A stretch of DNA of 64,000 nt, taken from NCBI GenBank assembly GCA_965178125.1, contig OZ237746.1, forward strand, positions 124,001-188,000, in the 5' to 3' direction. Within the stretch, counting starts at the first letter, position 1. Every line of letters starts with the position of its first letter. This stretch comes from Bilabrum cf. latius. Lineage: Eukaryota. Below, one piece after another: positions 6,120 to 64,000 of the stretch. Under the pieces are notes generated by a model, which saw nothing but the letters and a program-made list of their open reading frames with translations, was not told the origin of the DNA and searched no databases. The translations under genes and the position numbers were made by a program.

Positions 6120-9100
6120 ATGGTAGTGGCGTTCTTTTCCCATCGCAGACTGCTTGGGATATGTGCGTCAGCGTTGCCCAAGATGACGACGTTTCCAGAC
6201 CAGGCTGTCCTGCCGCAACAAGCTTCATCAACAGCCGTGCACCATAGTAGCGGATTTCTTAGTAATGCCTATGCACAGTGCGCACCCGGCAGGGGCTGCC
6301 GTGCAGACCGTGTTGGGCGTGCTCTTGGCAGCCCGAAGCCAGCGAGGCCAGCACCATACCCTGGGGACACAACAAGTTGCACGAATGCGATATTTAGTCG
6401 CAGTGCTACAGACATGAATAAATGTCATCACGAACATCACTAGCGCCAAATGCGGTCTACACCCGGGTGGATAAACTCGCCATTGCTCTCGCTCGGCAGC
6501 CAGAAAATTTCCCAGTCCGTTGGCGGATTCACGGAACCCCTGAATGCGTTTGACGAATTTGGGTCGTCCACTGCATTCATTGGTGACCTGGACCGGGACG
6601 GCATCGAAGACCTGGCGGTTGGCGTCAGCCAGGATGACGACGGGGGCGACAGCTAGGGTTCTGTGTGGATGCTGCGACTGCGATAGGACGGCACCGTGAG
6701 GTCGAATCAGAAGATCTCAGCCACGGCCGGGGGCTTCACGGGCGACCTGAGCCCGCAGGACCAGTTCGGCAGCTCCCTTGCCGCGCTGGGGGACCTGGAC
6801 GACGATGGGGTGCCAGACCTGGCCGTGGGAGCGCCAGGCAACACGGACAAGCAGGGTGGCGCGGGAGAAGGGGCAGTGTGGGTGCTGTTCCTGCAAGCCG
6901 ATGGGACGGTGAAAGGGCACCAGAAGCTGTCGCAGGACCACTTCGGGCGCCGCGCGTTCCTCCGCGATCTTGACTACTTCGGGTCGTCCGTCGCGGTGCT
7001 GAGCCGCTCCCACGGCGAGGAGGAGGCAATCACGCTGGCTGTGGGCTTGCCGGGGGCCAACACCCTGGGAGGCATCTGGACGGTCGGACTGCACCGGAAC
7101 GGGACCGTGAGCACGCTCGGACAGCTAACAGACGCGTACGGGAGATCGCTGGCAGCAATGCCGAGGCCCAGCTGGCACGGTGGGTCTACCACTAGTACTG
7201 GGTATGCGGCTCTGGCGGCGGGGGATCCCGAGTCTGACTTCGGGGGTCCGGATCAAGGGGCTGTGTGGGTGTTGTTTCTGGATGACAGGGGTGCATTCGT
7301 GCGCAGGTAGAACATATCTGGCGTTGAAGGCGTGATGCGGGGTGCCCTGCAGGACGGTGATCACTTTGGTGCCGCGGTGGCGGCTTTGAACGGCACTGAT
7401 GGCGATGACCTGGGCTTGACTGGCCTGCTGGTGGGCGCACCGGGGGATAGTGACGGGGGTGACGCCACGGGAGCTGTGTACGTGCTGACGGTGTTCGATT
7501 CGGGAACCGTGCAGTCCTACACGAAGCTATCGGCGACTAGGGGAGGTCTGTAGGCTCCCCTGGACGTGGGAAGCGCTTTTGGGTCCTCGCTGTCAGTCGC
7601 TAGCAACTGGACGGTGGATAACACGACTATCGTAGCGGTTGGCGTTCCTTTTGGCCGCGGTTCTAGCGACGAGCAGGGAGCTGTGTGGATCCTTAGGCTC
7701 AACTCGACGGGGCAGGTGGGCAGGTCGCCAGCGCAAGTCGGAACGATTTCGTCCCCGTTTGTAAGCGCGGCGGGGTTTCAGGAGCTGCCGGAAGAGGGAA
7801 GCGAGCTGGATGGGGCGCTGCAGGGGTCGTTTAGGTTTGGTTTTGTCGCTGCACTGGGGGATTTGGACCAGGATGGGGTGGAAGACATCGCGGTGGGGGC
7901 GCCTGGCGAACCTGTTGGCGGGGACGGCGGCGTGGGTGCGGTTTACGTGCTGTTCCTGCACACCAACGGCACTGTCAAGGCTTTTACGAGGATATCCAGG
8001 GGTGCTGGTGGCTTCACGCCCGACCTGGAACGGCAAGCAAGTTTTGGAATGTCGGTTACTTGCCTAGGGGATGTCAATGGCGACTCGATTCCAGATCTCG
8101 CTGTTGGTGCCTTCAATCATCGGGACGGAGATGCTTACAACCCTGGGGCCATTTGGATCCTGCGCTTGCATCGGACCGGGGCGGTATTGGGGTATGAGGT
8201 CATTGCTAACTCGACAGTGTGGCATCTCGCGAACTGGAAGGACGAATATACCCTCCGGGTAGGCATTGCTTCGATCGGTGACGTAGACGAGGATGGCGTG
8301 CCCGACCTGATGGCTGTCAAGCGCCATCCTCTATTCGTTCGGTACGGTATCTTGATATTTTTATTGCATGCCAACGGGACCGCGAAAGGCGTGTAGATCC
8401 TCAGCGAGAGCATGGGAACCTCTGCTGCCAACATCGGGGACCTGAACGGGGATGGAAGTAGAGACATCGCCATTGGCGACACCCAAGATTCTGATGGTGG
8501 TAGGTCCAAGGGTGCAGTATGGATCTACTTTTTGACTGAGAATGCCACCGTTCTCCAAACACAGAAGATCTCTAGGTGGAATGGGGGATTTGCAGGGAAC
8601 TTGCAGAACGGTGATCAGCTGGGCTATTCTCTTAGTGCTTTGCCAGACCTAGATGGGGATGGTGTTCAAGACCTGGCTGCAGGGGCATTCGACGGCTTTG
8701 ATATCAGCAAGCCAACAGCGAAAGGGGCAATATGGTTCATCTTCTTGAAGACCGATGGGACTGTCAAGACGCAGCGCGAGCTGACGGAAGCACAGGGTGG
8801 CTTCTCAGGGAACTTCAAACCAGGTACAGTCGGTCCACTTGGAATGTCGCTGGCCTCACTCGGCGATCTCGACGGAGACGGCTACCCAGATCTGGCCTTG
8901 GGGATGCCACTTAAGATCTGGTCACAGACTCAAACGGGGATGGTATCGGTTATACGCATCAATTCTACTGCCATGCTGCAGGTACAGCCCACTGTCTTGC
9001 CCACACTCTCGCCGTCACCCTCGCCTAGAACTCCCACCCCAACACCGAGCACGACCCCATCGGACCGTCCCAGGCTGGGATACTTACACACGCTCGGATA

Positions 9101-11764
9101 CTAGAAGATATCATCCCAATACGGTGATCTCCGTGCGCAACTCAGCCCCATGGGCACCTTCGGGTGGTCGAGCGCATCAATCGGGGACCTGGACGGGGAT
9201 GGCGTACAGGACCTGGCCGTTGGGGCCCCCCATGACAATGATGGAGGCAGAGACGTTGGATGTGTGCGGATACTATTCCTAACTGTCAACGGGACCGTCA
9301 AAAGCTATCAGAAGATATCTAACAGCGAAGGGGGCTTGGAAGGCTTGCTGCAGCAGCAAGACCGTTTCGGATATGCATTGGCTTCCATTGGAGATCTTGA
9401 TGGCGATGGGCTCAATGAACTCGCAGTTGGGGCAGTTGGGAATAGATTTGATACTGTAGGCAAGTGGCTGGGCGCCATGTGGATTCTGTTCCTGTAGCCG
9501 TCGGGGGAAGTCAGGCGGTGGCAAAAGCTAACCAACGACACGATCGGTCACTCGGTCAGGTGGAACTCTCGCCATCATCTGGGGGAATTCCTCGCTGCGC
9601 CAGGCGACGTTGACAACGACGGTGTCCCTGACCTGCTCGTTGGTCTTTCCTCTGTCAATACCTACCCCGATGACGGAGCCGTGTGGCTGATGAAGCTGTT
9701 TCGCAATGGTACAGCCAAGGCCATCGAAGTCCTTCCGGTCAGTTCTGTGCAGTCGCTCGCCACCATCGGCGACTTGGATCAGGATGGGAATGTTGATTTC
9801 GCGATTAAAACACTCGTCAACAGAACGGCAAACGGCTTGACAGGTGGGGCCACGATATTCTTTACCTCGGTGAACGGATCCATTGCAAGCAGATCCGAGA
9901 TCCGCCGAGAAGGGGACGGCTTCGACCAGCTGACATTCGTGTTCGGAGACGCATTCGCACCGCTGGGTGACATCAACTACGACGGCGTGCTCGACCTGGC
10001 GGCTACCTACATGTCAAGCTCTGACGGAGGTCCGAGCCGCGGTGCTGTTGCGTTGTTCTTCTTGAACATGAACGGGACGCTTAAGGGATACCAGGTGATA
10101 TCTGACACACAGGGCAACTTCGCCGGGACACTCAAGGACAGGGACTACTTTGGGTCATCAGTGGCGCTGATCGGAGATCTAGATGGCAGCGGGCTGCGGA
10201 CAATCGTCGTGGGAGCCTACTCGGACAGCGAGGACCAGCTTGCCACAGGGGCTGTAGGGGCTGTATGGATTCTTCGAATCAACGCTTCTGGCGTGGTGGG
10301 ATACGGTCCTGGCCCTGTGTCACCAACACCGTCAGCCTCCATCCCAGCGTCACCGTCGCCCAGTGCAAGCCCTACTCCGAGCATCACCTCTAGTGCCACC
10401 CCCTCTACCAGTATATCATCCAGTCCAAGTGTGGTGAGACCATTGTGATATAGTTCGACGCCTGGATGATCCATGCAAGTTGCAGGCTCTGTCCCAACTG
10501 CACGATCGGTGCTTGCCACAGTGCCACAGCATGCATCCAGATCCCCCTGCTTTCTTATCTACTGCTCCCTTAACTCCTGGCGCAGACCCCGTCTACCCCA
10601 CCATTCCCCATTCTGGTTCGCCCCGATGAGCTGCTCCCAAACCCCCTGAACCAGGACCGATCCACATTATGCGACAGGCCGACAAGCTTTGACGGCGAGA
10701 CACTTCCACTGCTGGCCGTCAACCTCCGGCTGGACCTGGCATCGGTAAACACGACCAGGTTCGGGTGCACGGAGGCGGTGGCGCTGGCTGACCTGGCCAT
10801 GGAGCTCATGGGCGTGAACGCGAGCAGGGCCGTGTACTTGACCGTGGTGGCAGAGATGGAGCCACCGCAAGGAGCGAGGGTTGGTATCGACCTGATGATG
10901 GCCGTGAATCGATCCATCGATGGTGTAGAGATGTACTACAGTATCGTGGACTTAGTGCAGTCTGGACAACTAGCCGATGCTGCCATTTCTCGCCTTGCGT
11001 TGAACGAAATTGTGCCTGGGGCAGGCAGCGATGCAACGAGCGACAGGCTGGGAGAAGCTGTTGTGGATGTGCTCCGATCTCAGGTGGGAAGGGTTCCTCC
11101 AGGGAAGCGGACAGCTACAAGCGGCGGCGGTGGCTCTGGTGTGTCGGCTGTTGCGATTGCGCTCATCACTGCGGGGCTGGTGATGGTATTGGCGTTCACG
11201 GTGGTGGCGGTATGGTGTAGGGGCGGGCTTGCTGGTGGTGGCGGTATGGGAGCTCGTCGAAGCACCAGCACGATGCGGCGGAGCGGGTGGACAGTGGTAG
11301 AGAGCGGATCCAGCGGGGGCTCGCAATTGTCAAATTCGTCGGAATCGGCTCAGTTCTATGCCACTGGCTCGGATAGGTCACGTCTCAGCACCAGCTCAGG
11401 TCAGTCAAACGGATCTGGCGGCACTATTTCCAGCAATGCCTGGCTCCGAGCAGCCTCGCAACCCTAGGAGATGGAGCTGGCTGGCGTGCTGAAGCCGGGC
11501 GCAGCGCAAGACCTGCGGAGAGGTGCAGACTCGAAGAGCCAGGTGAGGCCCCCCTCCGGTCGGGCCAGCCGGGCGGCGAGGGCGAGGAGGATGCGGCCTG
11601 CTGGATCCAGGGAGGAGGACTTGGCGGTAAGGGTACAGCGGCTGCGGCACGAGGCCGTGCAGCTGGAGGGCACAGTCCGGAAGGGACGTGAATCTGCGAA
11701 AAGGGGGGGGGGTCGTGTAGCCGAGCATACGCGGAGGGGCAAACTGACTGCAGCGAACGTATGA
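6120..11764 (+). CDS. FG-GAP (integrin-alpha-like beta-propeller) repeat type I membrane protein (TAG=Gln; intron 10434-10585)
   Basis: About 18 GDLDxDGxxDLAVGA-type repeats lie in one frame, broken only by TAG at 6441, 6654, 6684, 7308, 7551, 8394, 9102 and 9495, with one more at 11465. It has Ser/Pro/Thr linkers and a phase-0 intron GTGAGA...CGCAG. The TM helix AVAIALITAGLVMVLAFTVVAVW is at ~11145-11215, and the stop is TGA 11762. The start is uncertain (ATG 6120, 6183, 6413 or 6450). Confidence 0.88.
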
Positions 11765-11843: not shown

Positions 11844-14800
11844 TCACTGTGGCACGCCTGGACCAGAGCATTGGACCACTTCCTTGACAGTCCCACACAC
11901 AACCATGCCCTGCAGAGCTACGTCCATGTCGCAGGAGAATCCGGTACGCAGTGGGGTGACATCGAGAACCAGGTCGAACATCTAGAGCGACTCCCTCGCA
12001 GCCTCTCTGTGCAAGACACCCACTTCGCCTCTGGAGGCGCCCCACTTTGCATTCCCTAGACCTACGGAAGTGTTGTCTAGGAATTCGCTAAGTGTAAGCT
12101 CGCCGCCGTTCAGCGTCCTCTGCCTGGCCTCCATTCCCAAGAGGCCAGAGCGCGCACGTCTGGCTAGCTCCTACTCAAGCCACTGTACCCTCGCATTGGC
12201 AATTACACGCGCCTCAGCGAGTGGCAGGCCCGGACTCAGACCTGGGGTCATCGTCAGCGTATGCCAAAGCATCTCCTTGAGGGTATCCTCTGTCGGCGGC
12301 ACCAGCACCAGCTCTCCCACTGGAGCAACCACACCATCAGTGGCGGCGCTGTTGCTTGCCGATGGATCCGCGCTCCAAGATGCAGGACCTGTCACCGCCG
12401 CATGAGTAGTGCGCTACTTGAAGGGATCTTCTCTCCCACTCCGTGTCCATCGATCCGCCTCATCCTCCAAGCCCCCGTCACTGCTGTCGTCGCTCATCCA
12501 GCCCTCTCGAGGCCCTGACCCTCGAACCCGCAGCAGCGCGGCGCCCTCGACCGCTCCGGGGTCTCTTTCGGATCTTATTTGATCGCCAAATTCACTGTCA
12601 ACGATTGATTCCGCAACAGATCCACCCAGATCCTCGCTAGCCTCCTCGCTCCTGTGCACCCCATCCTGCTACTTGCCCTGGGCCTTCCGCCTCCGCTTGC
12701 CGAGTCCCAGCATCTTGGTCCATGGCACTGCAGTGCTCCTGGCTGCATCCCTGAGAGCAAAGCGATCAACAAGGAATGGCTCCGACAAGGGTGAGGAAGC
12801 GCTCTCGGAGCCCTGGCTGCTCGGGGACTGCACTGGGGGGGCTTGACTCGCCGCCACTGATGCTGCCGAGGAAGAAGATGACGAAGACGCCGGAACTGGA
12901 CCGCCTTGCCGGTGGTGTGTCCCGCCCTTTGTCCCGCCGTCCAGGTCATTTTCCAGCCGGATTTGGGCAAGTGAGGACTCCAGCTTGCCGTCGAGCTGCA
13001 CGGTCACGACGCCATCGCGCACCACTCGCTTGGCCTTCTGCAATGAGCCTGGAGGGGCCAAGGATGGCGCCCCTCTCTGACTCTGACTCGGGCGAGTGCT
13101 CGGACCCTCTTCTCGCTTTCCTGAAGTTGGGTCGGTGCTCTCTTGTGCAGCACTACGCGCGATTGCTTGGCTTGGTCTCTGGGTGAGATTACGAATCAGA
13201 GCAGCGGTTAAGGCATCAGCAGCGGTTAAGGCATCAGCAGCGGGCTATGCATCAGCGGCGAGCACTGCCTCCATAATCGCCTCAGCACTTGTTGTACCCG
13301 TTGCTTCGGCTCGCTGCTCCTCCTCGTCCTCCTCCTCGTCCTCGTCCTCCTCGTCCTCCTTCTCGTCCTCCTCCTCCCCATCATTGGTGGCATCACCGAT
13401 GGGCAGCCCACTCGGGTCAGTGCCAGCCACCTCGACCATGAGCTCCGGTGCTACGTGAAATGGGTCTCTGGTCCCCACGGTTATGTATCTGCTGGTGACG
13501 AACCTTCGCTCCGGCAGAGCTGAAGCAGGTGGCAGGGCTCGACTCAAAGCGCGGGGTGCTTCCTTGTCCTTGATGTCATCATGGTGTGTCCCTGTTGCGT
13601 TGCTGGTCGATCCAGCCAATGGTCGCGATGAAGCTGGACCAGGGGCAGCGGTCTATTCGCCGGACACTTGCAAGCCTGCTGCCTCGGCTGCCCGTTCAAT
13701 CATGCCAGCTAGCTCGGTATCCTGCATGGCCGGGCGAGCGTCGTGCTCCATTGCATCTGCACTGCCTGAGTTTGCCTTCGATGGCTCTGCAAGTGCGCCG
13801 ACCAAATCGCCATCTGCTGCGGCGGTCCGCTCGGTATCCCTCGTTCCTGGCACAGCCAGCTTCTGCCTGACCCGGGCCGCGGCACTGCAGTCCACCGGTG
13901 CGAGCCATCGCATGCCAGTCCTGGAAGGCACGAAGGCCCTCCGCATGTTGCCATCGTCGCAGGCCGACTTGTCCCTTTGCACCTGCAGGCCAACAATGAG
14001 GGCCCCTTTACTTCGCACAATGCTCCACACCTTCTCCCTCTGCTCGAACGTCAGGTGCATGCGGTCCACGACCAGCAATGGACCAGGTGGGAGCACGGCT
14101 CGATGTTTCCCTGTTTGGTCCGTCACACTGGCACTGGCACTGACACTGACACTGGCACTTCGGCTTGCAACCCTGATGGTCTGCCGTGCCCGAACCGGTT
14201 TCATCGAGACGGATCCAGCGGCATGAACAGCGGATGATGTGGCAGACCCCTATGCATCCCGCTGGTGCACACCCAGGCTCATCTCATCTTTCTAGTCATC
14301 CAACAACGAGCCAATCGAGTCTTTCGGATCAATTGGAATCTCCTCCAGCAGTCTTCGCTTCATCTGCTTGTCATCCAACTTTACCCCCTCGCTCTCTCCT
14401 CCCGACCGATCCATCAAGTCAAGCCGAGGGATAACCTCCGTCGGTTTGCCCTCTCCGCCCAACAGATCCATCACATCAAGCCCAACGACAACCTCGATCG
14501 GTTTGTAGCACGCCCTAAACACCTCCAGCAGCTCCTGCTTCACTCGGTGGAAACTGCCGCCCAGGTCGTCCTGGGACACGCGCACTGACCCGTGGCCCGC
14601 CCGCCGCGCGAGCCACCGCGCGATGGTGGACTTGCCGGCGCCCTGCCTGCCCCGCATGATCACCACCACTGGCGGGGACCTCACGAGCGGCACCAGATTG
14701 CGGTCGGCGCAGAACCCGGCAAACCATGGGGAGCAAGCCGTCTGGAGCTGACGGATGCATCCGTACACGCCGGGATGTCGCGGCACGGTGGGATGGACTG

Positions 14801-17800
14801 GCTATCGAGATGACGAGTTTTTGTCCGCCCCGTTCGTGTCTTTTGCAGATGCTCCGCTTGCAGCACTGCTTGCTCCAATTTCATCCATATCCTACTGTGC
14901 CTCATCGCTCAAATCGGTCTGGCTGCGCATCGCACGCGTGGTGGCAACCCGGTCCAGTGCACAGCTCGCCACCTCGATGGGGATTGACTCCATCCCCGGC
15001 ATAGCGCGGGGCAGTTGCTGTGAAGCGAGCGTGGCGCGCTTGGCCCACCACCGGGCGCTCTTTGCAAGCCTGTCCTGCCGCACACGGCCCAGCGCATGCC
15101 ACGCGCTCGGGCTGTACTTGGCCTGCAGCAGCCCGCAAGGGCTGGGCCCTGGAGCGTCTGGGGTGCCCGAGCCCAAAGTTGCCTGTGCCACGGGTGCTGG
15201 TTCTATGCCAGCACCCATCACTACATCGGTGTTGAAGAGGCCCCGGTTGCCTGGCATCGTCTTGGCCCCAAACGGAATTAATGGGAGGCGACCAGTGGCC
15301 TAGTCCTAGCCCTGGCTGGCGGCTTCCAAGTGACTGCGCTCCTCGCTGGGAGCATATGGCGACTCAAACCAGTGGATGCTGTCGCAGGCGGCATGCGCGC
15401 ACTCCAAAAACGCGATACCGCTTGCCTCTTCATCTGTGTTAGCACTCATCTGCTTCTTCCAGCCCTCCATCCCCATCGACAGCTGCCGCTCAAAGTGCCT
15501 CACTAACGTCTCCTTTGCCGTAATGCTGGGCAGCCTGAAGCATGCGTACTGCTTCCCGAGCTCCTCCAGCTCAGCTCTATTCAGCAATCGGCCTTTTTCA
15601 GGCGGAGGCCCCTGCTGCTTGGCGTTCAGATGGTTGGCTTGCACGCCGGCCATGCCCACCGGAACGGCCCCTTGCACCCCGCACACCGCGAGAAGGCTCT
15701 CCTCTCGGAATGTCAGGAGCTTGTGCTCCTTGCTGCCTAGAGCAGCTAAATGCTCCCCAAGGAAGTGCTCAGGGACGGTGAACCGCAGCCCTGCATTCAC
15801 GGCCATGGCTAGGTCGCCCGCGCTGTGGTCGTCCTGGCCGTCGAACCGCTTCCTGCCAGCGGCATCTCCCACGAAGATGCTGCGCTCGTGGTCCACTTCC
15901 AGCCCACCGGTCAGGGCATGGATGGCCATGCATGCCATCTGCCAGCACCCGAGGCCAGGCTTCCTGCACCAGTCGTACGATGGCGCCATCACGATTAGCG
16001 CGGGCAAACCCGCGTTGCGAAGCATGTCTCGGATGCGTGATAGCCTCCCCAGTATCTGTCTTTCTTTGTTCTCACTGTTGGAGCTGTGCGCCAACCCGCC
16101 CTGGTTGGTGACCAGCACCACTAGGGGCAGCAGCAGCACCTCATGTCCATCGCTTGCGCTCTCATCGTCATCGCCGGGCACAGGGCCACTAGATGCCGCC
16201 AAACCACAATCAGCTGCGGCAGGTGCAGGTGCTGTGCAGGAAGATGAAGAGGAAGTTGAAGAGACAACGGGCGGCCGCTGCTCGTTTGATCGCCCCAATG
16301 CGGCTCCCCTCACTCCCCTGCCATCTCCCTCTGGATTTCTCCTTCTCCACGCCGCCATTTCCACCGCCCTCTACCGGATTCTCCTGGCAATCGTCCTGAA
16401 GTTGCCGCCCTGGAACCCTCGCTCGTTGCGGTTGCTCTCCACCAGCGTCCCATCGATGTCCATGGCAAGCACCTGCACACGGCCCTGCTGGGGCACTGTT
16501 CCCCGGACCAGCCGCCACTTCGGCTCTGATCGTCCATCTGAGCAATACCTAACGGTGTGCCCGTATGCTCTGGCCTCCTGCATCCAGTCCTGGCTGGCGT
16601 TCATGTAGCACACGCCGCCCACGGGCCCGTCCGTGGAGCGCGCCTGCCGGTTGGTGGGTGTCCTACCCAGTACGCCGTACGAGATCCACTGGTCACGTGG
16701 GATGGTCATCATCGCACGGGCGACAGGTGACACTGGCGCCGTCGATAGGTCCAGAAACTCTGACTGTGCTTCCTTTGCTCCACCTGTGCTGGTCCCAGCC
16801 TGTGAGCCGGCAGCGGCACCATCGCCCCCTGCACCTCCCTTGTTCCCTCCGAGCACCATCCGGTCCCGCACATGGCCGTCCCCTGCACCTCCCTTGTTCC
16901 CTCCGAGCACCATCCGGTCCCGCACATGGCCGTCCCCGGGCCACCCCACGAACACGTCCTGTGCGCCGGGTGCTGGTCCCACCGGTGGTCTGCCTGCCTC
17001 CCCACTCACCCGCCATGCAGTTGGATCCAGGCAGCCATCAGCACCCACACTGAACCTGGACCTGGCCCTCCTCACGAGCACGCCGCAGCCGAGCAGCCGA
17101 GTGACCTCTGCCGCGGCCTCCTGTGGACTGGTCCCATGGGGCGACATGCAGGCCAGCGTCGGGGCCAGCATCCGAATGCTGCCCTTGTGCTAGACTAGAG
17201 AGGGCGTGATGACGGGGGCACCACTGGGTGCGGAACCGGAGGAGGAAGAGGAAGAAGAAGCTGTACCTGGAGAAATAGAGCTAGCCACAGCCGGGCTACC
17301 CATGAGTGCGGCCGATGCCGATGCCGATGCCGATGCCGATCCACCACCGCTGCTACGCATCGGCACGCTGGTACCGGTGGCCCCGGAGGCACCTGGCCCA
17401 GACATAGCACTTGACGCGCCAGCCTCACCAGACTCGTCATCATGCTCACCGTGCATAGGTGCAGGGAACTGCAGTGCTGCGAGTCGCAGCTGAGCGGCGA
17501 GGGCCGGACCGCTTGCTGCCTCGCACCACGCGATGCGCCTGGCTGTCCCGACCGGTGGTCTGTCGGCGACCGGCAGGGACAGGCCGGGGACCCAGGGAAC
17601 AGCGGGGGCGTAGTCCAGCCCGCTTGGATCCGGTGGGGGCTTTGCCTTCTCTTCCTCTGCCTTGGCTGCTTCGTAGGCTCGCGCTCTGGCCGCCTGCTTC
17701 TCTCTGATCCGGTCAGTCAGGCTTAGCTGGCCTCGTGATGAGGGCTGGCTTTGCTACAGCTGCTGTCGCTGGTGCTAGATCGCCACGGCAATTGCAGTGG

Positions 17801-18485
17801 CTTCCGCAGCGGCAGATCCGCGGAATGGCTGTGATAGTCCAGCCTATGATGCTTCCACGCGCCTCCGCTTGCTCGGTGACACCAGGCCGGGAGCCGCTGA
17901 GAGAGATGCAGCGCCGCCAGCAGCACCATTGCCCCCCTAGCCCTGGCCCCCCTGGCCCTGCTCACTGTCGCTGTCAGAGTCCAGGTCGATCACCAGGGGT
18001 CGCTTGTCACCTGCGTTGCTACCAATTCCAGCATTCTGCAGCTGCCCTGTGGCAGCGCCGCTTGCGACCTGTGGGCCCGCCGGTGCGCTGGTCGACCGAG
18101 CACTTGCTTCGGCCCCGCGATGCAGATCTGGGGGGCTCATGCCAGGCGCGAAATAACGATGCCGGTACTTGTCCCTGCTGACCACCTCTCCACGCCTGAT
18201 GCATTCGTCTATCCAGCCCTTTCTAACAATGTCGATTGGCCTGTGCGGCGGACGCAGCAGGCCGTCTGGTGTTGGAGGCTTACTTCGCATATACAGGTTC
18301 GCATGGGTTGCCTGAAGCGAGCTGTGCGGAGATACTACCACTGCAGACGCTAAAATCGTGATGTCTGGCGCCATCCGCCGCAAGAATATGCTTTTACGCA
18401 ACCTGGACTGCTTGTCAACGAGCGCTACATACTTTCGAACTGTGTTCTTTGAAAAAGCCTGATCAACCGCAAAGACTACGTCCAT
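11844..18485 (-). CDS. PNKP: BRCT plus polynucleotide kinase 3'-phosphatase (PNKP-like) protein, ~2213 aa (TAG=Gln)
   Basis: A single 6.6-kb frame runs from ATG 18485 to TGA 11844-11846 with ~18 TAGs and no TAA/TGA. It has a BRCT-like IVRKGWIDECI. HAD phosphatase motifs are MDIDGTL, VTNQGG, RKPGLG, FVGDAAGR and DHSAGDLAMAVNAGLRF. The kinase P-loop is MRGRQGAGKST followed by VSQDDLG. Confidence 0.85.
16826..16937. repeat. Tandem 54-bp duplication in the PNKP-like gene (GDGHVRDRMVLGGNKGGA x2)
   Basis: Identical units start at 16826 and 16880. Confidence 0.9.
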
Positions 18486-24800: not shown

Positions 24801-24878
24801 GGCATGCCGGCTTCCGGCGGGGTGCCTGCGAGTGGGCCGGCGGGTGTCCCTGGTTCTTTCCAGCTCCCGGCTTAGAAC

Positions 24879-24918
<40 letters not shown>

Positions 24919-25121
24919 TCGCGCAGTTGTAGCAGCTCCTGTCGCAGAATCCCGGCCTGCTGGCCCTCCGTGGACATTTCTTTGATGAAGCAACGAATGC
25001 CACGATGCAGGCTGGCATGCAACGCAGGGTGCCGCCCAGTGGCAGTGCGAGTTTTTCGGCTGGAGGGAGTGCGCCTGCTAGTGGTGCAATATCCCAGAGC
25101 ATGCCGTTCCAAGGGCAGTGA
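18844..25121 (+). CDS. Large low-complexity protein with N-terminal XRE/lambda-repressor-like HTH and C-terminal poly-Gln; putative transcription regulator (TAG=Gln; introns 18940-19028, 19164-19304)
   Basis: Exon 2 encodes FLNDYQVSVAEAAQRAAVDPAMLQQWLTGK. Frame 19305-25121 is broken only by ~10 TAGs, several inside Gln-rich runs. The stop is TGA 25119. The second donor site was chosen to keep the frame. Confidence 0.72.
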
Positions 25122-33500: not shown

Positions 33501-33631
33501 GTGGCAATGGATCTCCGAGCAGGGATGGCAGCTTGAAGCGGGCGGGGGCGGGGGCGAACCTGGTGGAGCGACTCGGCCAAAGGGAGGTCAGGCCGGCTGG
33601 GGGCCGTGGACTTGCGGGACACGGTCGCTGA
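27569..33631 (+). CDS. RNI-like leucine-rich repeat protein with long disordered C-terminus (TAG=Gln; intron 27816-28007)
   Basis: LRRs are LAYLDLSRNPL, LRHLVLHDCGL, LETLDLSSNPIG, LLRLCLDNCRVG, LRCLGMRACGLG and LLFLGLEFNSL. A phase-1 intron GTGAGT...CGCAG joins the frames. There are ~9 TAGs, and the stop is TGA 33629. Confidence 0.82.
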
Positions 33632-49848: not shown

Positions 49849-52149
49849 TCAGTCGCCCCCAAGCCTCGTCAGCGCTGCCGCCACCCGAAACCTCGACAGA
49901 GCCGCCTTTCGCGCCCGCGTGAGCACCAGAATGGCCAGCTCAGTCGGGACCCGGACGTGCCTGACCATGTGCGGCTGCAGCCAGCGCCTGTTGCCACCAG
50001 CGACCCAACCCTTCTATTGATCACAGCCTGCAGGAGCCTCACCCTTCTCCTCGGCACCGACAACAGCGCACCGCTCTCGGTCCACGAGCGTCTCGCGCAC
50101 CAGGTACTTCATCACCACGTCACACACGCGACTCACCGCGCCCCCCACGTGTGCCCTGGCGAACTTGCTGCGGACTACCTGCGCGAGGACATGCATGGTA
50201 CCCCCTACCATTTCTGACGGCAGCGGTTGAGTGCTTGGCTCTTTTGATTTCGGCACATAGGCACATATGTCCATCTTCGCCAGCTCCAGCCCGATGATGC
50301 TGTGCCTGTACTGACCCTCATCCAGCCCCGGCACAAGGCTCGGGGGCATGGCCTCGCTGTTGAGCACCCAGTAAGGAGCGTGCGTCCCGTCGCAGATGAC
50401 CCTCCCCATGACCAGCAGCGCCTCTTTATCCAGCGTGGCGGCTGCATTGGCAGTGAATCGTCGCACCACGTCGTCACATATGTCTCCCATCCCCGCCCAC
50501 AGTGCCTTCCGCAACAGCCCTGACCGAGCCATCGTGCACGCAAGCCGCTTGCGGGCGGGTCTGCGTGCTGTAGTGCCTTTGCCCAGCACTTGGGCAGCGG
50601 TGGTCAGCACCTTGACGCTCCAGTCTTGCACGGAAAAATGGGTGGAGTCGCCCGTGCGGAATCGACGAGAGGGGGCCGATGCGGCAGACTTGGTCAAGAA
50701 ACCGCGGATGAAGCTCGTGTGCTGATCGTCTAGGATCCCTCCCTCACTACTCGCAGGGGTCAAGTCCGCATCGCCAGGGGTCTCGCCTCCGCTTGCTGCC
50801 AGCGGCTAGGGCTTGCCGTACGAAACGACCTTGCACGCGTCTTGTAGGAAATCTCCCAGCACCATCAGCAGGTCCACATGGCGGCACATCGCGTCGCTGG
50901 AATAGTCCCACGCAGGGCCCGAGTAGTTGTGCAGCCAGCTCAGCGCCTCCTCCAGCGCGCTCTTCCGCGTCAATGCCTCCAGGCTGTGGCCCCGTTCGAG
51001 GTGCGATACTCCGCCCCGCAGCGCATCAGCCACCACATCGCACGCGAGGTCGAAGAAACCGTCCCTGGCCAGGCAATCCATGTACTTCTGGACGGCCTCT
51101 CGCCTCGTGTGGATGAGCATGCCGCACACTCGAAGCACCGATGCGCGCACCCGCATGTCGCGGTGAGGCATGCGAGCAACGTGAATGAGAGCGGCGGTGT
51201 ATCCGCCCGTCAGCAGCTCCCGCACAATGGCCGGGTCCTTGGGCTGCTCCAGCGCGCCCGAGGTCATGTTGATGATGTTCACGAGAAACCGCTCGTCCAG
51301 GGCGAAATCGGCACCGGGAGTACCATTCGGGGTCGTAACGTCTGCTTTAGGTTGGCCTGGACCGGCTCTTATCCCTGATTCTCCGCCAGCGCCCGAGTGG
51401 GGGCCAGCCCCGGCTTGCTCGCCCTCGGAGGCACTGCTGGCAGTAACAGCAGCGTGCACGGCAGCCCGGAGGTGCTTGGGCACCCGCGGGCGGAATGGCT
51501 TCGCTCTCGGGGCGTGCGACATCCAGGAGCACTGGGGCGACTTTCCGTTATCTTTTTGTACGGGTTGCGTGGGCATAGACATTCCAAACATACCTGCAGG
51601 GTCAGGAATGTCGGCCGGGATAGGCTGCTTAGGCAGCCCGATGGATTCGCGGGCTCGGCCGGCTGCATCGACGAGGGCAGCCGCGTTGATGATGGACTGG
51701 CCCAAGTATCGACCGGCCTTCACTTTCCCATACTCCTTCGAGAACCACGGTGCACCCTCAATGTACCCGAGCACCAGTGTAGCATCGATCGCGGCACGCG
51801 GACTCTTGGCGATGTTCTCCACTATACCAAGCAGTTTGGGCAGCAATTGGCGTTTATTGAGCAACTGCTGCGCCGCATAGTCCATTTGGCCGGAATATGT
51901 CATGGTTGTTATGGTTCGAAGGGCTGACCGCAGGTCTACCACTGTTGCTGATGAATCAAACAGCGTTCTGGAAGCCTTGGTAGTTGGAAGTGGCCCATGC
52001 TTCCCTAAACCCTATCCTTGCATAAGCTTTTCGAGGTCTTTTGAGCTTCCAGGCACGTCATTGTCCGCAATGAATCCAAACTGTACGTGCGCAGGTGGTA
52101 TTTGCACGTGTCGCGGCTGCAAGCCTACGCACAGTGCATGCAGCCTCAT
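49849..52149 (-). CDS. Uncharacterised, probably alpha-helical (armadillo-like?) protein (TAG=Gln; start uncertain)
   Basis: The frame is open from 52182 to TGA 49849, with TAGs at 52012, 50806 and 50014. No diagnostic motif recognised. Confidence 0.6.
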
Positions 52150-52782: not shown

Positions 52783-53285
52783 GGCGTACATCCACTAGTC
52801 CTGCGGCGTGGAGGACGGTTTGCCCGAGCTACCTGCCGTCCTTGGAGGCAACACAGTCATGCACAGCCCCCGTGGTTTGCAGTATCGAGTGGAGTCACCG
52901 CCGGCTTTACCTCCAACTGGCACGTGCATGGTCGCCTCCCTGGAAATTTATGTGGCAAGTATCTGTTCTGAAATGTACAAGAGTCTGGATATTTTTGAAT
53001 TTGTAGTCCGCCGGAACTGCCTGCCGCCGGCGAGCACGCACATGGAATGCGCTGTCCATCTCAAGTCAAAGCGATTAATGCAACAACTTGATGCCCTGGA
53101 TGCCCTCAAGCAACTGCTTGCCTGTCATCGTCAGCTGCGTTGGCTAGTACCCAGCAGCTCCACTCGACTGGATGACTAAACTGCAGGGTGATTCCCATGG
53201 CTTGGCACCTCGTCCCCCTGTGGCATTGACTTCGGTCTACAGCAACACCGTCATCCTCCCAACAAGAGCGACGAGCCAGTGGCGG

Positions 53286-53573
53286 CATATCGTCTCCCGC
53301 CTGCAGCCTTGAGCATGGGGCTGATGCATATCGTCTCCCGCCTGCAGCCTTGAGCATGGGGCTGATGCATATCGTCTCCCGCCTGCAGCCTTGAGCATGG
53401 GGCTGATGCATATCGTCTCCCGCCTGCAGCCTTGAGCATGGGGCTGATGCATATCATCTCCCGCCTGCAGCCTTGAGCATGGGGCTGATGCATATCGTCT
53501 CCCGCCTGCAGCCTTGAGCATGGGGCTGATGCATATCATCTCCCGCCTGCATCATTCAGCATGGGGCTGATGC
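53286..53573. repeat. 41-bp minisatellite, 7 copies
   Basis: Unit catatcgtctcccgcctgcagccttgagcatggggctgatg at 53286, 53327, 53368, 53409, 53450, 53491 and 53532 (last copy degenerate). No spacers. Confidence 0.95.
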
Positions 53574-54015
53574 ACGGCATCGTCCAACTATGCTTCTCGC
53601 CTTTCCCGTGTGGCCGTACAGTAGTAGCCCAACAACCGGCTGAAGACACGATAGGCTCCATGAAGCAGGCAGAGAACAACATGTTGCCAGCAAGTCCCGA
53701 CTAGCTGCCTACGATAGATCAGGAGAGCCAGGAGTGCTGGGAGAGCCAGCGACTGCTCCACTGAACAGGACAGTGCTGGCAGGAGGGGACAGACGTGAAG
53801 ACGTCTGCCAGCAAGCTCCCTGCCTGCCCCGCCTGCGCACGCCGCATGCCGACGTTCCTTGCATCTGCGCACTCCACTGCTGCCATTGGTCATGGCGCAT
53901 TGCTAGGAACCGCTGGCACGCACTGCAGGAAGCCTGTATCCAACCTCAACGCCCCACTAGTACCAGCATACCTAGCACCACCCGGGGCCTGGCCTGCAGC
54001 CAGACCAAATCGCAG

Positions 54016-54683
54016 TCACTGCACGTACACGAGCCAGCCGAGCACGATGTAGAACAATACTGCAGGATAAAGCACCAGCAGGCGGCGGCGCTCCTCCACA
54101 GTGGTCTGGAGGAACACGAGAGCTGCCCTGCTTGCCCACGTGATGGCGGCCAGCGTGCAGATCGCCCGGAACACGCCGTTGCTCCACAGGGACCCTAGGA
54201 CCGCGGCGATGACGAGCGGGCAGGAAGCGTAGCCCAATATGCTTACGGTCTGAAAGAAAGACTGCTGGCCGCCCAGCAGCTGGGCATTGAGAGTGATCAC
54301 AGCGCTGCCCCCCCACATGAGCATGAACACGGAAGTGAACACAAGAGATGACTGCTCAGCCGATGCTCCTAACGACAAGGTGCTGCGCGAAAGCGAAGCA
54401 TGTTTATTATGGGAGAGCGGACATGACAAAGCTTAGTCCCCTGACGACAGCAGGCATGGGTTTTCTTTTCTTACATCGACAGAATCAAGCACAAGATGAG
54501 CGGGCCCCACAGGTCCCAACTGCGCAGCCTACCGATCTATTCCTAGCTGTTTCCCACTCCAACTGGAACCATGACTAGCTTGACTTTTTCGTAAACGACC
54601 ATGAGGTCTCTCGTGATCGTCGTGCACACTGGTTCGTCGAGAGTCCGCAACGTGCTGTTGCTCGTATTCCCCACTGAATCCAT
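54016..54683 (-). CDS. YIPF6: Yip1-domain Golgi membrane protein, YIPF6-like (TAG=Gln at 54543 and 54537; intron 54383-54474)
   Basis: Motifs TLDEPVCTTITRDL, LRSWDLWGPLILCLILS, VITLNAQLLGG, SFFQTVSILGY and RRLLVLYP. The intron is phase 2 (GTAAGA...CGCAG). Ends at TGA 54016. Confidence 0.92.
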
Positions 54684-54854
54684 GGCTGGGCCCTCTGGAA
54701 TCGCTGCAGCTGCCGCCATGAGCTCAACAAGTAGATTGGCTCTGGCACTGAAACGCTTTTAGACGAGGCGTACAGGTGGGTGGGAAATTTCCCCAAACGT
54801 TTCAACGCGAGGCATAATGCAATTCGATCGGAGTTGGCGGGCCAAAAATGCGCA

Positions 54855-57566: not shown

Positions 57567-60500
57567 ATGGCGGAACAAGCCGCAGGCGGCCCAGATGCCG
57601 GAGCTCGACAGCAAGACGCCGTGAAAACTAGCGACTAGCAGGCCTAGACGTCGTTCTAGCGCTTTGTCGCGGCATCCCAGAGAGGGCTGTTTGGCTTGGG
57701 ATTTATTCTCGCGAAGGATTTCAAGGTGAGCTGCATAGATATCGCCATGGCTAAGCGCGGGATTGACATCGGCAATATAAACGCCAGCCTTCCGCTTTCT
57801 CTCTTGCCCTGCATTTGGCGCAGCCCGTCACGATAATCCTTATTGTCGGGTATATGTTCGACCTTGGATAGCTTCTTTCGTTCCCGCTGAGCGATGACGA
57901 TCGCATGCCGTGGAGCAAATCTCCAGGATTGGGTACGGTAGCATCAAGTCTGACGTTCTTAACTCGTGCTATTTCGGCAGACGAAAATCCAGCAGCATTT
58001 CTAAGCTTGCTAGTCGTTGCATTTCTGTGGGTAGTGTCCTATTTAGGGCTGGCCTACAGCGTTGCCGCCCGGTTCAGCGAGGACGGCCCTCAGTCGGAGA
58101 TTGCTCTAAGGACACTTCGCATAATGACGTCTCTCTCCAGCGGGCCACTCTACATCCCAACATCCACCGTAATTCTGCAAGGCATTGCTTGTCAGAACAA
58201 CAGCTGGCTCAACACCGGGCTGGAGTGCTCCGGAGCGGGCCACATGGTTATCGCCTTTATTCTTTCCACCGGTCTACTGGGGTTCTCTGGACTTGCTATC
58301 TTCGCATCCCTGATCTGGGTGGACCGCTCCCCTGCCAGCCTCAACTGGGGGGCAAGGCAGCACGGGAGGTACGACGCAGCCATGATCCTCACCAAGCTCA
58401 TCCTCGGGTTTTGCTACTCGGTGCTCAACCACCAGCTGGTGGGCACCGTGTTCATGGCCATTCTCCTCATGGCCGTGGGGCTGGGCCAGGCATACCTGTA
58501 CGCATTCGTCCCGGTGTTCGTGCAGCGAGACATCAACGCGATGTACTCTGGGGGAGGCTGCGCCCTGTTCTTCGCATCGGTCTGTCTCCTCATCGCCCAG
58601 CTGCTTGGGCCCGAGCAGGCCTACCTGTGCGTGTTCCTCGGGCTGCCCGCGGTGTTCGGCCTCGGGTTCTTCGCTGCCAGGCGCAGGCTGGACCTCATAG
58701 GGAGGGGCCACATCAGGCAGTGCTAGTCCCTCGCAGACGTGCACGTGTGGGCCCGCCGCCGGATGCAGAGGTACGCCGCCCTCAAGCACCTTTCCGAGAG
58801 GAGCGGGGTGCAGCAAGGGGGGGACTCGGACGGGGCGGCCCAGGCATCGGGCACGGACGGAGCAGCATCTGCCGCGAGGATCGGGTGGAGCGGGGACGCT
58901 GCGGCCGACGCCGATGACGACATGGCAGGCGACAGCGATGGCATGGGGGCCGGCGACGACGGCGCCACTGCCAACGACGACACCAGCAGCGTCGCGTCAG
59001 GCAACTCCCGCCCCTCCCACGCGGCGAACAGGTCCATGTCCACTGCGCGCCGCCGCAAACAACCAGCCTCCGCGAGCCGGTACGCCAATGGGGACGACTC
59101 TATGAACTCGCTCGTTAGGGGCGTCTCTCTTCAGGTGGCCGACCAGCTCAACCCCGAGGACGTCAAGGCCGAGCTCAAGAGGGTCAAGGCGGAGGCAGAG
59201 AGGGGCTACCAGTACGGGATGGAGCGGTTCAACCGGGACGAGATGGCCTTCATCCAGTACGGGATCTTCATCCGGTACTTTTCCAAGTTCAGCTTCCTGG
59301 AGTGCATCGCGCTGAGCAGGGCGCTCAAGCTGAGCCCCAGCATGGACTCGAGGTTTTACAGTGAGATGAATGAGGAGTGCGGTGTGTTGCATTGCATCGT
59401 CTTGTCGCCTTAAGGATGCTGAGAGCTGCAGAAGTCCCGCAACACCCGAACCAGGCCTGAGCTGCTTGCAGCGCTACCTGCGTACGCACTCGTTGTAGCG
59501 TCCACTCCTCCTTTGATCCCCCATTTCTCTATTGCCCATCCATCGCAGTCTTCACTCGGATCCGCGCGCTAAGGGAGTCGGACGGCAGCGGGCTCAGCCC
59601 CGTGGACCGCGTGCTCTTCGACGGCGCGTTCAAGGAGGTCATGCAGATGCGGCTGCATGCCTACAGGCACATGGCGCGGCTCTGGAACACGCTGAGCGCC
59701 TCCCAGCCGGACATTGCGGACATCCTGCAGACGGGCATCGCCATGAAGTCCACGCTCGAGAAGATCGATGCGTCGTTCCGCAGGCTCATGAGCCTAAACT
59801 CAGAGAGCACCGGGGTGCTGCGGGCACTGGCCGCCTACCTGATCGACCTGAGGTCCCAGCCCGACCGCGCCACGGAGCTCTTGAACAAGGCCAACCGCAT
59901 CGAGGACTCGTCCAGGAAGCAGCGCATGAAGCTCGTGCAGAACGTCGAGTTCGGAGCCACGACCCAGGCCTAGTCCATCCTCGAGGACGGTGCAGCGATC
60001 ATCACCATCAGCGGGGCGGCTTCGATCGGCAGCACCTCCAAGCTGGGCGAGATCGTGCACGTGACCCAGTCCGCCTCGAGGCTGTTTGGGTACGGGGCGC
60101 AGCAGCTGCTGGGCCAAAACGTCGCTGTGATCGTCCCCCCGCCAATCGATGCCGTGCACAACCGGCTCATCTCCGGCTTTGGACGCAGCCGCACTTCCAT
60201 GGTGGTGGGCAGCACTCGGCTGGTGTTTGGCCAGCGAAAGTCGGGCGAGATTTTCCCCATGTGGCTGCAAGTGTCAGAGGCCCCGCCGGACGAGCGGACC
60301 GCGGAGCCAAGGTTCTCGGCGGTGCTGCACGAGGTGGTGACCCAGCAGGACTTCATCGTGTTTGGCGGCCCGGAGCTGCAGTACAAGGTGTTCGGATGCA
60401 GCTCTCGAGCCCTCGAGATGCTGGGCATCGAGTCGGAGACGCTGCAGACCGAGGACATCAGCATGGCGCAGTTCTTCCCGTCCATCGACTCCACCTACAA

Positions 60501-63500
60501 CGAAGAAATCCCGCTGAACGAGGAGGACATTAGGGCCATTGCCGCTGTGCCCGTCGTGCAGGACCTGGAGGACGTGCTTGGCTCCATCCGTACCCGGTAG
60601 CAGGCAGCCATGCGCCGCAGCCAGGCGCAGGCAGAAGCCCAACGTGCTGCGGCTGCGCCTGACAGCAGGGATACTCTCGGCGATGAGGGGCTCCCCAGTG
60701 CAGCTGGAGGTCGTGCCGCCGCTGCTGACTTGGCAGGGTTCGGCGGTCTGTCGGGGTCGATGGACGCGAGCGGAGCCCACCGCGGCCTTGGCGGCAGTGC
60801 AGTGCACCCTGGCCTGGCGCCCATCATCGGGGGCAATCGCACCAGGGATGTGCGTGCTCTGGGCCACTCGGTCGGGTTTGCTTCGTCCCCGAAGAAGGCG
60901 GAAGCGGGAGGCGCGGGCCATCGCGACAGGGCAGGCAGTGACGAGTCCAAGAGCAGCAGCAGGCGCAGCAGCACCAGCAGGAAGAGGGGAGAGATGAGGA
61001 CTTCTAGGCACGACCAGCTCGCCGCTGCCATTGCCACCTGCAACTCTGCGCTAGCACGGCCGCTCAGGCAGCAGCGCAAGCCGGGCATCATCCCCGTGCG
61101 CGTGCTCGGGGTGGACAAGCTCATCGTGGGGAGCTGCCAGCGGGTCATGATCAGGGAGGTGCCGACGTTCTACGTGCTGCGCTACAATGCATTGCACTAT
61201 AGAATTCGGGACGACCACCACAGCGACACTGTGAGCGAGGCTGGGCACAGGTCGGTGAGCGGTGACCCGCGCTCGGCACCAGGAAGCGCCCCCGGCAAGC
61301 GCAGGGCCTCCAGCAGCTCCCAAGCATCCCATTCCATGGCGAGAAACCAGATGGGGATGCAGCCGAGCTCATCGCCAGCCAATTTCCCAAGAGCTAGGTC
61401 CCAGCCGCTGGTGAGCCGATACAGCAGCGGTGCGTGGAATGCCCGCACAATGTCCAAGCAGTCCGCGGCCTCGTTCACTGGCATTGAGGACGGCCTGCCC
61501 GGGCACCCTATAATTGCTGGGATGGATCGCGACTCGCCTTCGTCCTCGGTGGCAGAGGGCCCGCAGCCAATCCCAAGGCGTCTTGCGGGAATCCCGGACA
61601 GGGACGAGTCGAAGAGCAGCGAACTGCCAGCAGACTCTCTGATGGCGGTGCAGGTTCACGGGGAGCCAACCGATGGCGATCTGGCGGTAGGAGTGCGCCG
61701 CACCGACAGCATGAGCCAGAGCAAAGACGACGAGGAGGGAGATGACGACGAGGACGACCTCCTGGGTGACCTCGACGACGGCGAGGACGAGGAGGGGGGC
61801 GCAACAGGAAGCAAAGAGGATCTTGAAACAAAGGAGCAGTCACGAGGCGACGCTGACATGGAACAGGCCGCGCGTGATGAGAAGGACGCCGATCCTGTGC
61901 CGAGTGATGTATCAGTCAGAGGCACTGAGGCGCGAGAGCGGCCCTTGAACAGCAGCGATGAGGGCGATACTTCTCCCAGGAGCTTGGCTCGCGCCGGTGC
62001 CGTCGTACACGAGGACCAGGGCAAGCAGCTAAAGGCGCCCGAAATGGGCAAAACAGAGCCTAACCCATCGGTCCAGCCACCCGCCAAGGGCAACCTCCGC
62101 AAGTAGGTGTCTATGGGGCGCGGCATCCTCAAGTCGGGGGGCAAGCAGTCGCGGGCGGGGTCGCATCCACCGCTCAGCAGGGGCCGCTCGTCGAACGCAA
62201 TCGGGAACGCCGACGATCGCACGCAGTTGCAGCACCAGCAATACATGCCGCCTGCTCTCGACTCCGGGACAGACCTCGATGGCAATGCGTCGATGCACTC
62301 GGGCACTGTCAGCTTCAAGGATGGGGCGAACCAAGTGGTCGTTATCGACGCCGCGGGAAAGAGCAGGAGCTTCCACAGCGGCACAGGCTCCACCCGATCC
62401 ACCATCGCCAGGATCCACCAGCTGTCCCAGGGGGCGGTGGAGCCAGAGATCCGCTCCATCCGGATCGTTCTCCTGGTGCTGGCAGTTGCTGTCCTTGCCC
62501 TTGGAGTTGGCATCGTGCTCTACATCCGCAACGTGGTGTCCCAGATTGGGAACAACTCGGCCTCCGTGTGGATTGCGGGGCAGAGGCGGAGGGCCATGCA
62601 GACGGGCATCGATGCCGTGCTCTGGATGAGCTTCCAGACCTTTGACGCAAACGGCACGGTGACGGGAGCGTCGAGCGTGCTCGACTCGATCGAAGACACC
62701 GTCCGCAGGCTGCAGGTCGACAGGGTGGCCACCGACATGGAGCTGCACCGCCTGCTAGAGGGCGCTGGAGGGCTGCCAGTGGATGCTACCGCTTCCATGC
62801 TGGAGGAAATGCTACCAGAACAGGTTGCTCCGAGTGACCTGCTTGCCGGTCAATCGGAAGCGAAGCCTCGCCGCAAGCTGCAGTACAGCACCAGCGCCGA
62901 GACAGCCCTCATGGCCAGCAATGGGAGAGGCGCGCTGGAGCTGCTTCGGCTGATATCGGACGAGATGCAGATCGCGCAGGCAAAGCTGTTCGAGCTGCAG
63001 ACGGATGCAAAGGTGGGAGAGTTCGAGGGCGATTTCCGCACGGCCATGCGGCTGCCGCAGCAGGCGGGCGGCGGCACCATCTACGTGCCGCTCATCCAGC
63101 ACGTGCAGGAGATCGTCGCTGCCATGCGGAGGATCTCCCGGCTGGACCCCCAGAACATCACGGTGTCCCAGCGCGACGTCCTCTTCTTGAGCCTCAACTC
63201 TGAGGTGTGGGACATGGCCATGGGGCACTCTTTGGAGATGAGGTACGTAGTGTTCGCCGCTGTGTTCCCCAGAACCGTGCAGGAGGTGGTGATCTTCGGG
63301 GCGGCGGTGTTTATCGTGTACAATCTCCTGGGGTCCATCGTGTTCGCGAGGCTGTCCACGAGGCTGGGCAGCAAGGTGCGCAACGTGCTGCAGACCTTCT
63401 TGCTGCTGCCCCGCTCCACCGCTCGAAGGCTTGCAAACCGCTCCCAGAGGCAGCTCAACAAGGTGCTGAGGGAGATCAACAGCGAGCTCATGTCCGACTC

Positions 63501-64000
63501 TGAGGAGGAGAGCGACGACGATGACGCGGACGACGTGAACTCCGTCAACGGCGCCGGGGGCGAGTCCAGCTCGGTGCAGCTGGTGCAGGCGCGGGCTGCG
63601 CCTGGTCGGCGGCAGGACTCGACCACCCAGCTGCTGCACAACAAGGAGACCAGCTCGGATCGGAGCCTCCTCGCCAAGTCGTTGGGACAGGCGGACGACG
63701 GCAGGAAAATCGTCCAAAGCGGCTCCGAGTCCAACCTTGCCGTTGGCAAAGCAGCCGCCGCGCACGGGAGCTAGCCGGCAGCACCAGGCGCGGGCAAATC
63801 GACCCGTTCCTTCGGGTCTCGCCGCAGCCGCAACTCGAGGTGGTCCTCCCGCCGAGCCAGAGAAGCAGCCCTCGTGAAGGCCATGGCAAACCTCAGGGAA
63901 CACACAGACAGCTCCCAGTTCGTGCTCCGGTCCACCGCCTGGCTGCTGCTGCCCATCCTGCTGGTGCTCGGCTTCATCCTCTTCTTCGTGTTCTGGCAGC
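57567..64000 (+). CDS. Multi-pass membrane protein with PAS domain, TmcB/TmcC (tiny macrocysts)-like; partial (TAG=Gln; introns 57726-57823, 59361-59548)
   Basis: An N-terminal TM bundle and a TPR-like helical region are followed by a PAS domain (SASRLFGYGAQQLLGQNVAVIVPPPI...VFGQRKSGEIFP) and further TMs. About 9 TAGs; runs off the window. Confidence 0.8.

Follow-up and report, generated by a model that had tools for sequence, protein, structure and literature searches.

In a 64,000-nucleotide stretch of contig OZ237746.1 (positions 124,001 to 188,000; the whole stretch is hereafter the window, numbered from its first letter), an earlier sequence-only reading had proposed a nuclear genetic code that reassigns UAG to glutamine (Gln) and keeps UAA and UGA as stops. 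We built 18 gene models with eight introns (all GT..CAG, 91-192 nt), which together cover 83% of the window, whose GC content is 61.9%. Over the 17,752 codons of these models we counted 98 in-frame TAGs, 0 TAA and 0 TGA, in agreement with an earlier hand count of about 90-100 TAGs and with the claim that the frames are interrupted by TAG alone. TAG is present in 15 of the 18 models; 14 models end in TGA and two in TAA, the latter at 40387 and 43614 just as had been noted, and the remaining two extend beyond the window. The description of nearly every gene as one continuous frame does not hold for several of them, given the eight modelled introns, two of which were seen spliced. The spliceosomal-type introns, together with YIPF6 and a PEX11-like gene, indicate that the DNA is from a eukaryotic nucleus. 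The TAG-bearing genes are listed below with their strand in brackets.

Genes of the window and their in-frame TAG codons

1..1626 (-), extending beyond the window: reverse transcriptase (RT) open reading frame (ORF) of a DIRS/Ngaro-like retroelement; 12 TAG; Pfam RVT_1 match, E 3.7e-9
1361..3901 (-): gag-like ORF; 6 TAG, ends in TGA; no Pfam match
6414..11764 (+): FG-GAP repeat membrane protein; modelled intron 10434-10585; 9 TAG, those at 7308, 8394 and 9102 in a repeat column where Gln is commonest
11844..18485 (-): PNKP-like gene (PNK3P and P-loop); 18 TAG, ends in TGA
19362..25121 (+): Gln-rich low-complexity ORF; 10 TAG, those at 24390 and 24930 within Gln-rich runs
25350..26967 (-): two-exon gene; intron 26859-26751, spliced in three sequencing runs; 6 TAG, those at 26570, 26327, 26045 and 25997 in spliced contigs
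27569..33631 (+): leucine-rich repeat (LRR)-like and low-complexity gene; modelled intron 27816-28007; 9 TAG; no Pfam match
34134..35552 (+): C2H2 zinc-finger gene; 1 TAG (35394)
35739..37448 (+): PEX11-like gene; intron 36201-36317; 3 TAG; Pfam matches under the cut-off
37672..40389 (+): FHA-kinase gene; TAG at 38461 (kinase N-lobe) and 39964; ends in TAA
41613..43616 (+): LRR gene, paralogue 1 (LRR1); 5 TAG, the last (43605) three codons 5' of the terminal TAA
47363..49558 (-): LRR gene, paralogue 2; 3 TAG; TGA end at about the end position of paralogue 1
49849..52149 (-): ORF of unknown function; 3 TAG, ends in TGA
54016..54719 (-): YIPF6; intron 54474-54383; TAG at 54545 and 54539; TGA end at the conserved C-terminus
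57567..63999 (+), extending beyond the window: TmcB-like PAS membrane protein; two modelled introns; 9 TAG

In the coding frame the density per 1000 codons is 5.5 for TAG and 0 for each of TAA and TGA; in the remaining five frames of this DNA it is 6.1, 2.6 and 12.5, respectively. Reading through TAG fuses short standard-code pieces into long frames, which reading through TAA or TGA does not do. With TGA as the sole stop, at most one TAA is gained per long frame, and by their coordinates these TAAs are within modelled introns, precede the start or exon, or sit where a gene ends. Gene calling under the standard code breaks the 18 proteins into 116 pieces with a median of 82 residues. Pfam matches extend across TAGs or lie 3' of them in the kinase, FG-GAP, PNK3P, RVT_1 and TmcB/PAS genes, and the PNKP-like frame (18485-11844) does carry the 18 TAGs previously ascribed to it. 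The location of TAGs within conserved domains stands for the kinase, where 38461 falls between the G-loop and VALK and aligns without gaps to a His of MARK1; in YIPF6 it does not, since the TAGs at 54545 and 54539 belong to a variable exon 1 loop and the Pfam Yip1 match, confined to exon 2, does not include them.

The residue specified by TAG and the codons that end genes

A metagenome scan with YIPF6 exon 2 as the query recovered two contigs, L001 and L002 (91% amino-acid identity), which show 70-79% identity to the window in matched DNA; L001 is the same as L002 over 3,220 nt and was not counted as independent. In L002, four ORFs (YIPF6, FkbM and partial MFS and PNKP-like frames; 3,046 codons) contain 34 TAG, 0 TAA and 0 TGA in frame, with TAG in all four, and their ends comprise three TGA and one TAA; the PNKP-like homologue, too, has 18 TAGs. 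These codon counts imply that the UAG code is common to two well-diverged species. Over positions 1-11238, L002 has the MFS-YIPF6 order of the window; the PNKP-like gene and YIPF6 are about 4 kb apart in L002, where the FkbM methyltransferase gene sits between them, and about 35 kb apart in the window. Scans of genome contigs gave no match to YIPF6, and the 12 loci matching the MFS gene were distant prokaryotic transporters that we did not use.

Pairwise alignments were made of three orthologue pairs and the LRR paralogue pair, with columns of local identity of at least 0.4 taken as good. In these alignments, Gln is enriched opposite TAG as had been anticipated, standing opposite five of ten TAGs in good columns (the others being A, H, S, R and R), compared with 22/2,067 opposite non-Gln codons (p 3e-8). 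When all 1,666 columns are taken, Gln is opposite 7/23 TAGs. The empirical log likelihoods at 0.4 are -17.3 for Gln, -28.1 for His, -32.1 for Lys, -35.8 for Ser, -37.7 for Glu, -40.9 for Tyr and -54.6 for Leu, and Gln ranks first at every identity threshold. Cleanest of all are two codon swaps between the species: the window YIPF6 codons CAG at 54264 and 54108 are TAG in L002, in columns at 100% local identity where two further relatives, P0121 and P0136, have Gln. In the FG-GAP repeats, a hand tally of 18 blades gives seven Gln, three TAG and eight scattered others in the column with the three TAGs. Of the Gln codons, 11% are TAG in the window and 24% in L002, and the TAG share drops as GC content at third codon positions rises (rho -0.82, n=16), which is the behaviour expected of a minor synonymous codon. 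Among the contexts earlier taken to indicate Gln, the repeat column thus holds up, and the LRR paralogues offer Gln at just two of their seven TAG columns. Poly-Q adjacency turned out weak and non-discriminating, a Gln neighbour being found at 11/98 TAGs, 21/192 Tyr codons and 21/200 TTG codons. A neighbour-profile classifier of TAG was likewise uninformative, with its positive control, CAA, also not called Gln.

That TAG specifies some other residue (His, Lys, Glu, Leu, Ser or Tyr) is very unlikely. In its favour can be cited the five non-Gln residues in the ten good columns, and the kinase TAG column, in which His is ahead among 120 homologues that are mostly bacterial or unnamed (His 47, Gln 39, Asp 26). 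Set against these are the lead of 10.8 log units held by Gln at the 0.4 threshold and the last place of Leu. One TAG column of L002 YIPF6 (2581-2583 of L002, 54262-54264 of the window) is occupied by I/V/L in 117/120 homologues, which could likewise be taken as a hint of another residue, but the window has CAG at this column and the two further relatives have Gln. The column is Gln in the clade of the window and L002, and code inference by distant-homologue profiles would here wrongly call TAG hydrophobic.

As for the stops, if both UAA and UAG (UAR, where R is A or G) were Gln, the A/G ratio of CAR, AAR and GAR codons would predict 30.8 in-frame TAAs in the window, where none is observed (P 2e-12). 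A code of this kind, with UAA as a very rare Gln codon and the two apparent TAA ends read through, is more improbable still than a different residue for TAG. It could appeal to the small number of TAA ends and to the kinase, where an in-frame TGA comes four codons after the TAA. Beyond the missing 31 or so TAAs, it has to contend with the absence of in-frame TAA in L002 and with the TAA of LRR1, which lies at the end position of its paralogue. A further alternative is a bifunctional UAG of the Condylostoma type, read as Gln internally and as a stop near the poly(A) tail. This is unlikely, though less so than the preceding two. In three genes, LRR1 (2 codons), the gag-like ORF (17) and the PEX11-like gene (23), the stretch 3' of the last TAG is short and fails to score as coding, and UAG might there serve as a stop; an LRR1 protein ending at TAG 43605 would equal its paralogue in length to within two residues. 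However, the corresponding stretch is clearly coding (log ratio >10) in 8 of the 13 closed TAG-bearing genes, and the three orthologue pairs all end in TGA or TAA in both species and none in TAG.

TAG in sequencing runs, and the proposed code

The sequence of 33001-43000 is found in eight public runs from four studies under four organism labels, one of the studies being possibly the source of the window. Runs X5-X8 (four of the ten listed, from three other studies) were compared over 23801-43750, with about 30 of some 2,000 contig pieces examined and a TAG counted as bridged when at least 31 aligned letters lay on each side of it. At least 17 of the 32 in-frame TAGs in this region are bridged without any other letter. 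The 109-nt intron 26751-26859 is skipped in X5, X7 and X8, and the 117-nt intron 36201-36317 in X5 and X7, with one X6 contig unspliced across the latter. These clean GT..AG skips point to X5, X7 and X8 being transcripts. Spliced X5 and X7 contigs contain four TAGs, of which X8 has two as well, with no alternative letters such as CAG, in keeping with the expectation that UAG would be present in mature mRNA. The three single-letter differences in unique sequence fall at neither TAG nor Gln codons. As an observation apart, the compared runs show almost no differences, which fits a near-clonal flagellate in cultures or samples of other organisms.

These data bear on causes outside the code, namely errors of assembly, U-to-C editing, tiny introns with TAG at their end, and pseudogenes. 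Contigs, as used here in place of raw reads, lose rare variants, and partial editing could accordingly go unseen; the in-frame TAG density of 5.5 per 1000 is also near the off-frame value of 6.1. Artefact, editing and tiny introns are nonetheless unlikely given 17/32 TAGs unaltered in three other studies and four in contigs spliced at a GT..AG intron, and the alignments run through TAG without gaps. Donor-like motifs show no excess 5' of TAG (7/98) over those 5' of CAG (55/594), arguing against tiny introns, and pseudogenes should have accumulated TGA, TAA and frameshifts as well, none of which is seen in the models. In view of the spliced contigs, the motif counts and the absence of in-frame TAA and TGA, we rejected these readings, the least probable of all those considered.

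We therefore regard it as highly probable, on present sequence evidence, that UAG is read as Gln and UAA and UGA as stops in this nuclear genome. The orthologue codon swaps, the repeat column, the lack of in-frame TAA and the spliced contigs all sustain what the sequence-only reading proposed. Several points weigh against it. The model bounds were set by TAA and TGA, and hence the in-frame counts are partly circular. TAA ends total three (two in the window, one in L002), making direct support for UAA as a stop thin, and of the two in the window, that of the kinase has the nearby TGA described above and that of LRR1 is three codons 3' of a TAG. The residue call comes from just ten good columns, where 5/10 is below the 51/73 (Gln or TAG) seen opposite CAG/CAA, and the LRR pair has few Gln among its TAG columns. 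Distant YIPF6 homologues do not favour Gln in any TAG column, their commonest residues being E (36) and T (46) in the columns of the window and I (66) and S (56) in those of L002. The RNA label of the runs is an automatic guess, none being recorded as RNA and X5 being marked as probably DNA, and six of the eight modelled introns were not seen spliced. Finally, neither a tRNA-Gln(CUA) nor an eRF1 gene is present in the window or in L001/L002.

Under this code UAG would be a third, minor Gln codon, and termination would be mostly at UGA and rarely at UAA. Because a UUA anticodon would read both UAA and UAG (PMC11687900), the decoder would have to carry the anticodon CUA. Its simplest source, by the established mechanism, would be a duplicate of tRNA-Gln(CUG) mutated to CUA, pairing with UAG and not with UAA. 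An eRF1 with lowered affinity for UAG, as proposed for the T32G change of Iotanema, may complete the system; the inference of both decoder and eRF1 draws on the discussion of Iotanema in PMC5304391. The reassignment would then be older than the split between the window species and L002.

Among the other features of the window, the gag-like and RT ORFs overlap by about 265 nt in different frames, and the gag label was inferred from the ORF1/ORF2 layout in PMC8547959. TAG accounts for 18/74 Gln codons of the retroelement versus 80/779 in host genes (p 9e-4), suggesting a retroelement adapted to the host code. Scans of viral contigs with RT, LRR and gag-like queries gave no relatives, and a search of the PDB with a piece of the RT no matches; a Gln presumably to be expected in the RT motif ahead of the LSFG-like stretch was left out of the evidence for the residue. 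The protein of 25350-26967 has TAG as its codon 2 and similar Gly-Gly-Gly-Ser-rich motifs at both ends, which we take to be reminiscent of SPIRAL1/HN1-type repeats; its Pfam search gave no match. The two LRR paralogues (41613-43616 (+) and 47363-49558 (-)) are inverted relative to each other and have 793 bp in common at 91.8%, and the 12 differences carried by one X5 contig at 42224-42290 suggest that a paralogous copy exists. A stand-alone response-regulator receiver domain without TAG lies at 46627-46995 (-) (E 1e-12), and the sole tRNA of the window is tRNA-Ser(GCT) at 40749-40836 (-). Also seen were a 159-bp copy (52627-52785, 93.7%) of part of the 49849-52149 ORF (50287-50445), located 5' of that gene, and a tandem array of a 41-bp unit (53285-53574, 7.1 copies, 97% matches) in the gap 3' of YIPF6.

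Phylogenetic placement and comparison with known codes

The window contains no rRNA, and placement was by one gene, YIPF6. P0136 has its top full-length identity, 57%, to Cafeteria roenbergensis among the 120 matches listed, and an atlas search with it returned the Yip1 family only. In a quick tree of 102 rows, excluding matches under 150 residues, the clade shares an open fork with Cafeteria, at SH-aLRT 90. When 35 hand-picked rows were used for a careful tree, the window, L002 and P0136 grouped together (100/98), their long branch being part of a polytomy; Cafeteria is the nearest named YIPF6 by path there, in a grouping without support. The top 20 BLASTP scores to the window YIPF6 do not include Cafeteria, and the kinase homologues, mostly bacterial or unnamed, were of no help. 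Neither tree has a named ciliate or fornicate row; Ciliophora and Fornicata were set aside by GC content and stop usage alone. The low-complexity style of the window proteins presumably resembles that of bicosoecids and other stramenopiles. On balance, a bicosoecid or other stramenopile is marginally favoured as the source, and the stramenopile/bicosoecid placement of the sequence-only reading may be kept as a lead, with the careful tree giving a polytomy.

The reassignment in the window and L002 is probably independent of those in Iotanema and ciliates, considering the 62% GC, UGA as the main stop and the rarity of UAA. It is a tentative proposal, to which we would not give even odds, that this is an undescribed independent UAG-only reassignment in a small GC-rich clade of bicosoecid-like flagellates, and the first nuclear stop-to-sense change in Stramenopiles. 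No stramenopile nuclear reassignment was seen in the literature matches listed, judged by title and start of abstract, a search that left most subscription journals and supplements outside, and an earlier mention is thus possible. Nor is one described in the excerpts of PMC6972860, PMC11412368, PMC6723347, PMC6492006, PMC8547959, PMC8345874, PMC12152300, PMC12574857, PMC10089648, the EukProt preprint and 10.64898/2026.07.28.741278. PMC4967479 reports no new code among 265 non-ciliate MMETSP species.

UAA is a rare stop here, unlike in the published carriers with reported stop usage (Iotanema and the recoded phyllopharyngeans). If the proposal is true, the lineage, with UAA rare, is not locked against its later capture and may represent a living stage midway from the standard code to UAR = Gln. 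The combination of 62% GC and UGA as the main stop is hard to square either with AT pressure driving codon capture or with the suggestion that UAA is kept as a stop by dependence on it. Very few nuclear codes separate UAG from UAA, and in the excerpts examined the Gln version is reported without a cognate tRNA. Here, long contigs, spliced transcript contigs and a relative with the same code allow direct tests for the tRNA, for changes in eRF1 and for when the switch took place. The four studies and four labels suggest, if the proposal is true, that the flagellate is already in cultures, where tRNA-Gln(CUA) and eRF1 could be sought. As standard-code calling fragments the proteins, such lineages are easily overlooked in protein databases.

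UAG-only Gln is reported for the case first named, Iotanema spirale (Pánek et al. 2017, PMC5304391), and also for ciliates, namely the phyllopharyngeans Hartmannula sinica and Trochilia petrani together with Protocruzia tuzeti (McGowan et al. 2024, PMC11687900). Pánek et al. also regard the attribution of table 15 to Blepharisma as erroneous (PMC5304391). Iotanema has the codon table of the window, with UAG as Gln and UAA and UGA as stops. It differs in ending genes at UAA in 104 cases and UGA in 15 (PMC5304391), compared with 14 TGA and two TAA in the window, and in being an anaerobic gut fornicate with a lineage-specific change, confined to Iotanema among fornicates (PMC9161772). Its eRF1 carries T32G; its genome was unsequenced in 2017 (PMC5304391). 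In Hartmannula, Trochilia and Protocruzia UAG alone became Gln and is found in 78-91% of genes (PMC11687900), comparable to 15/18 in the window, and neither H. sinica nor T. petrani yielded a suppressor tRNA (PMC11687900). Among the recoded phyllopharyngeans, UAA is used by 86.9-98.3% of genes, in a class of 27-54% GC (PMC11687900), in contrast to the rare UAA and 62% GC of the window. Table 6 (UAR = Gln; many ciliates, hexamitids, oxymonads, ulvophytes and Amoeboaphelidium) shares UAG as Gln and UGA as a stop with the window, but uses in-frame UAA, of which the window has none against about 31 expected. Cafeteria roenbergensis/burkhardae (Bicosoecida), as described in excerpts, are likewise GC-rich, with few introns and Ngaro retrotransposons; they differ in their GC content of about 70% and in that a non-standard code is mentioned for the mitochondrion alone. 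Halocafeteria has 47% GC and lacks Ngaro, as opposed to the 62% GC and Ngaro-like element of the window. The window is thus improbable as DNA of either the sequenced Cafeteria or Halocafeteria. Thus, the codon table itself is already known, and what sets the window apart from the published carriers is UGA as the main stop together with high GC.

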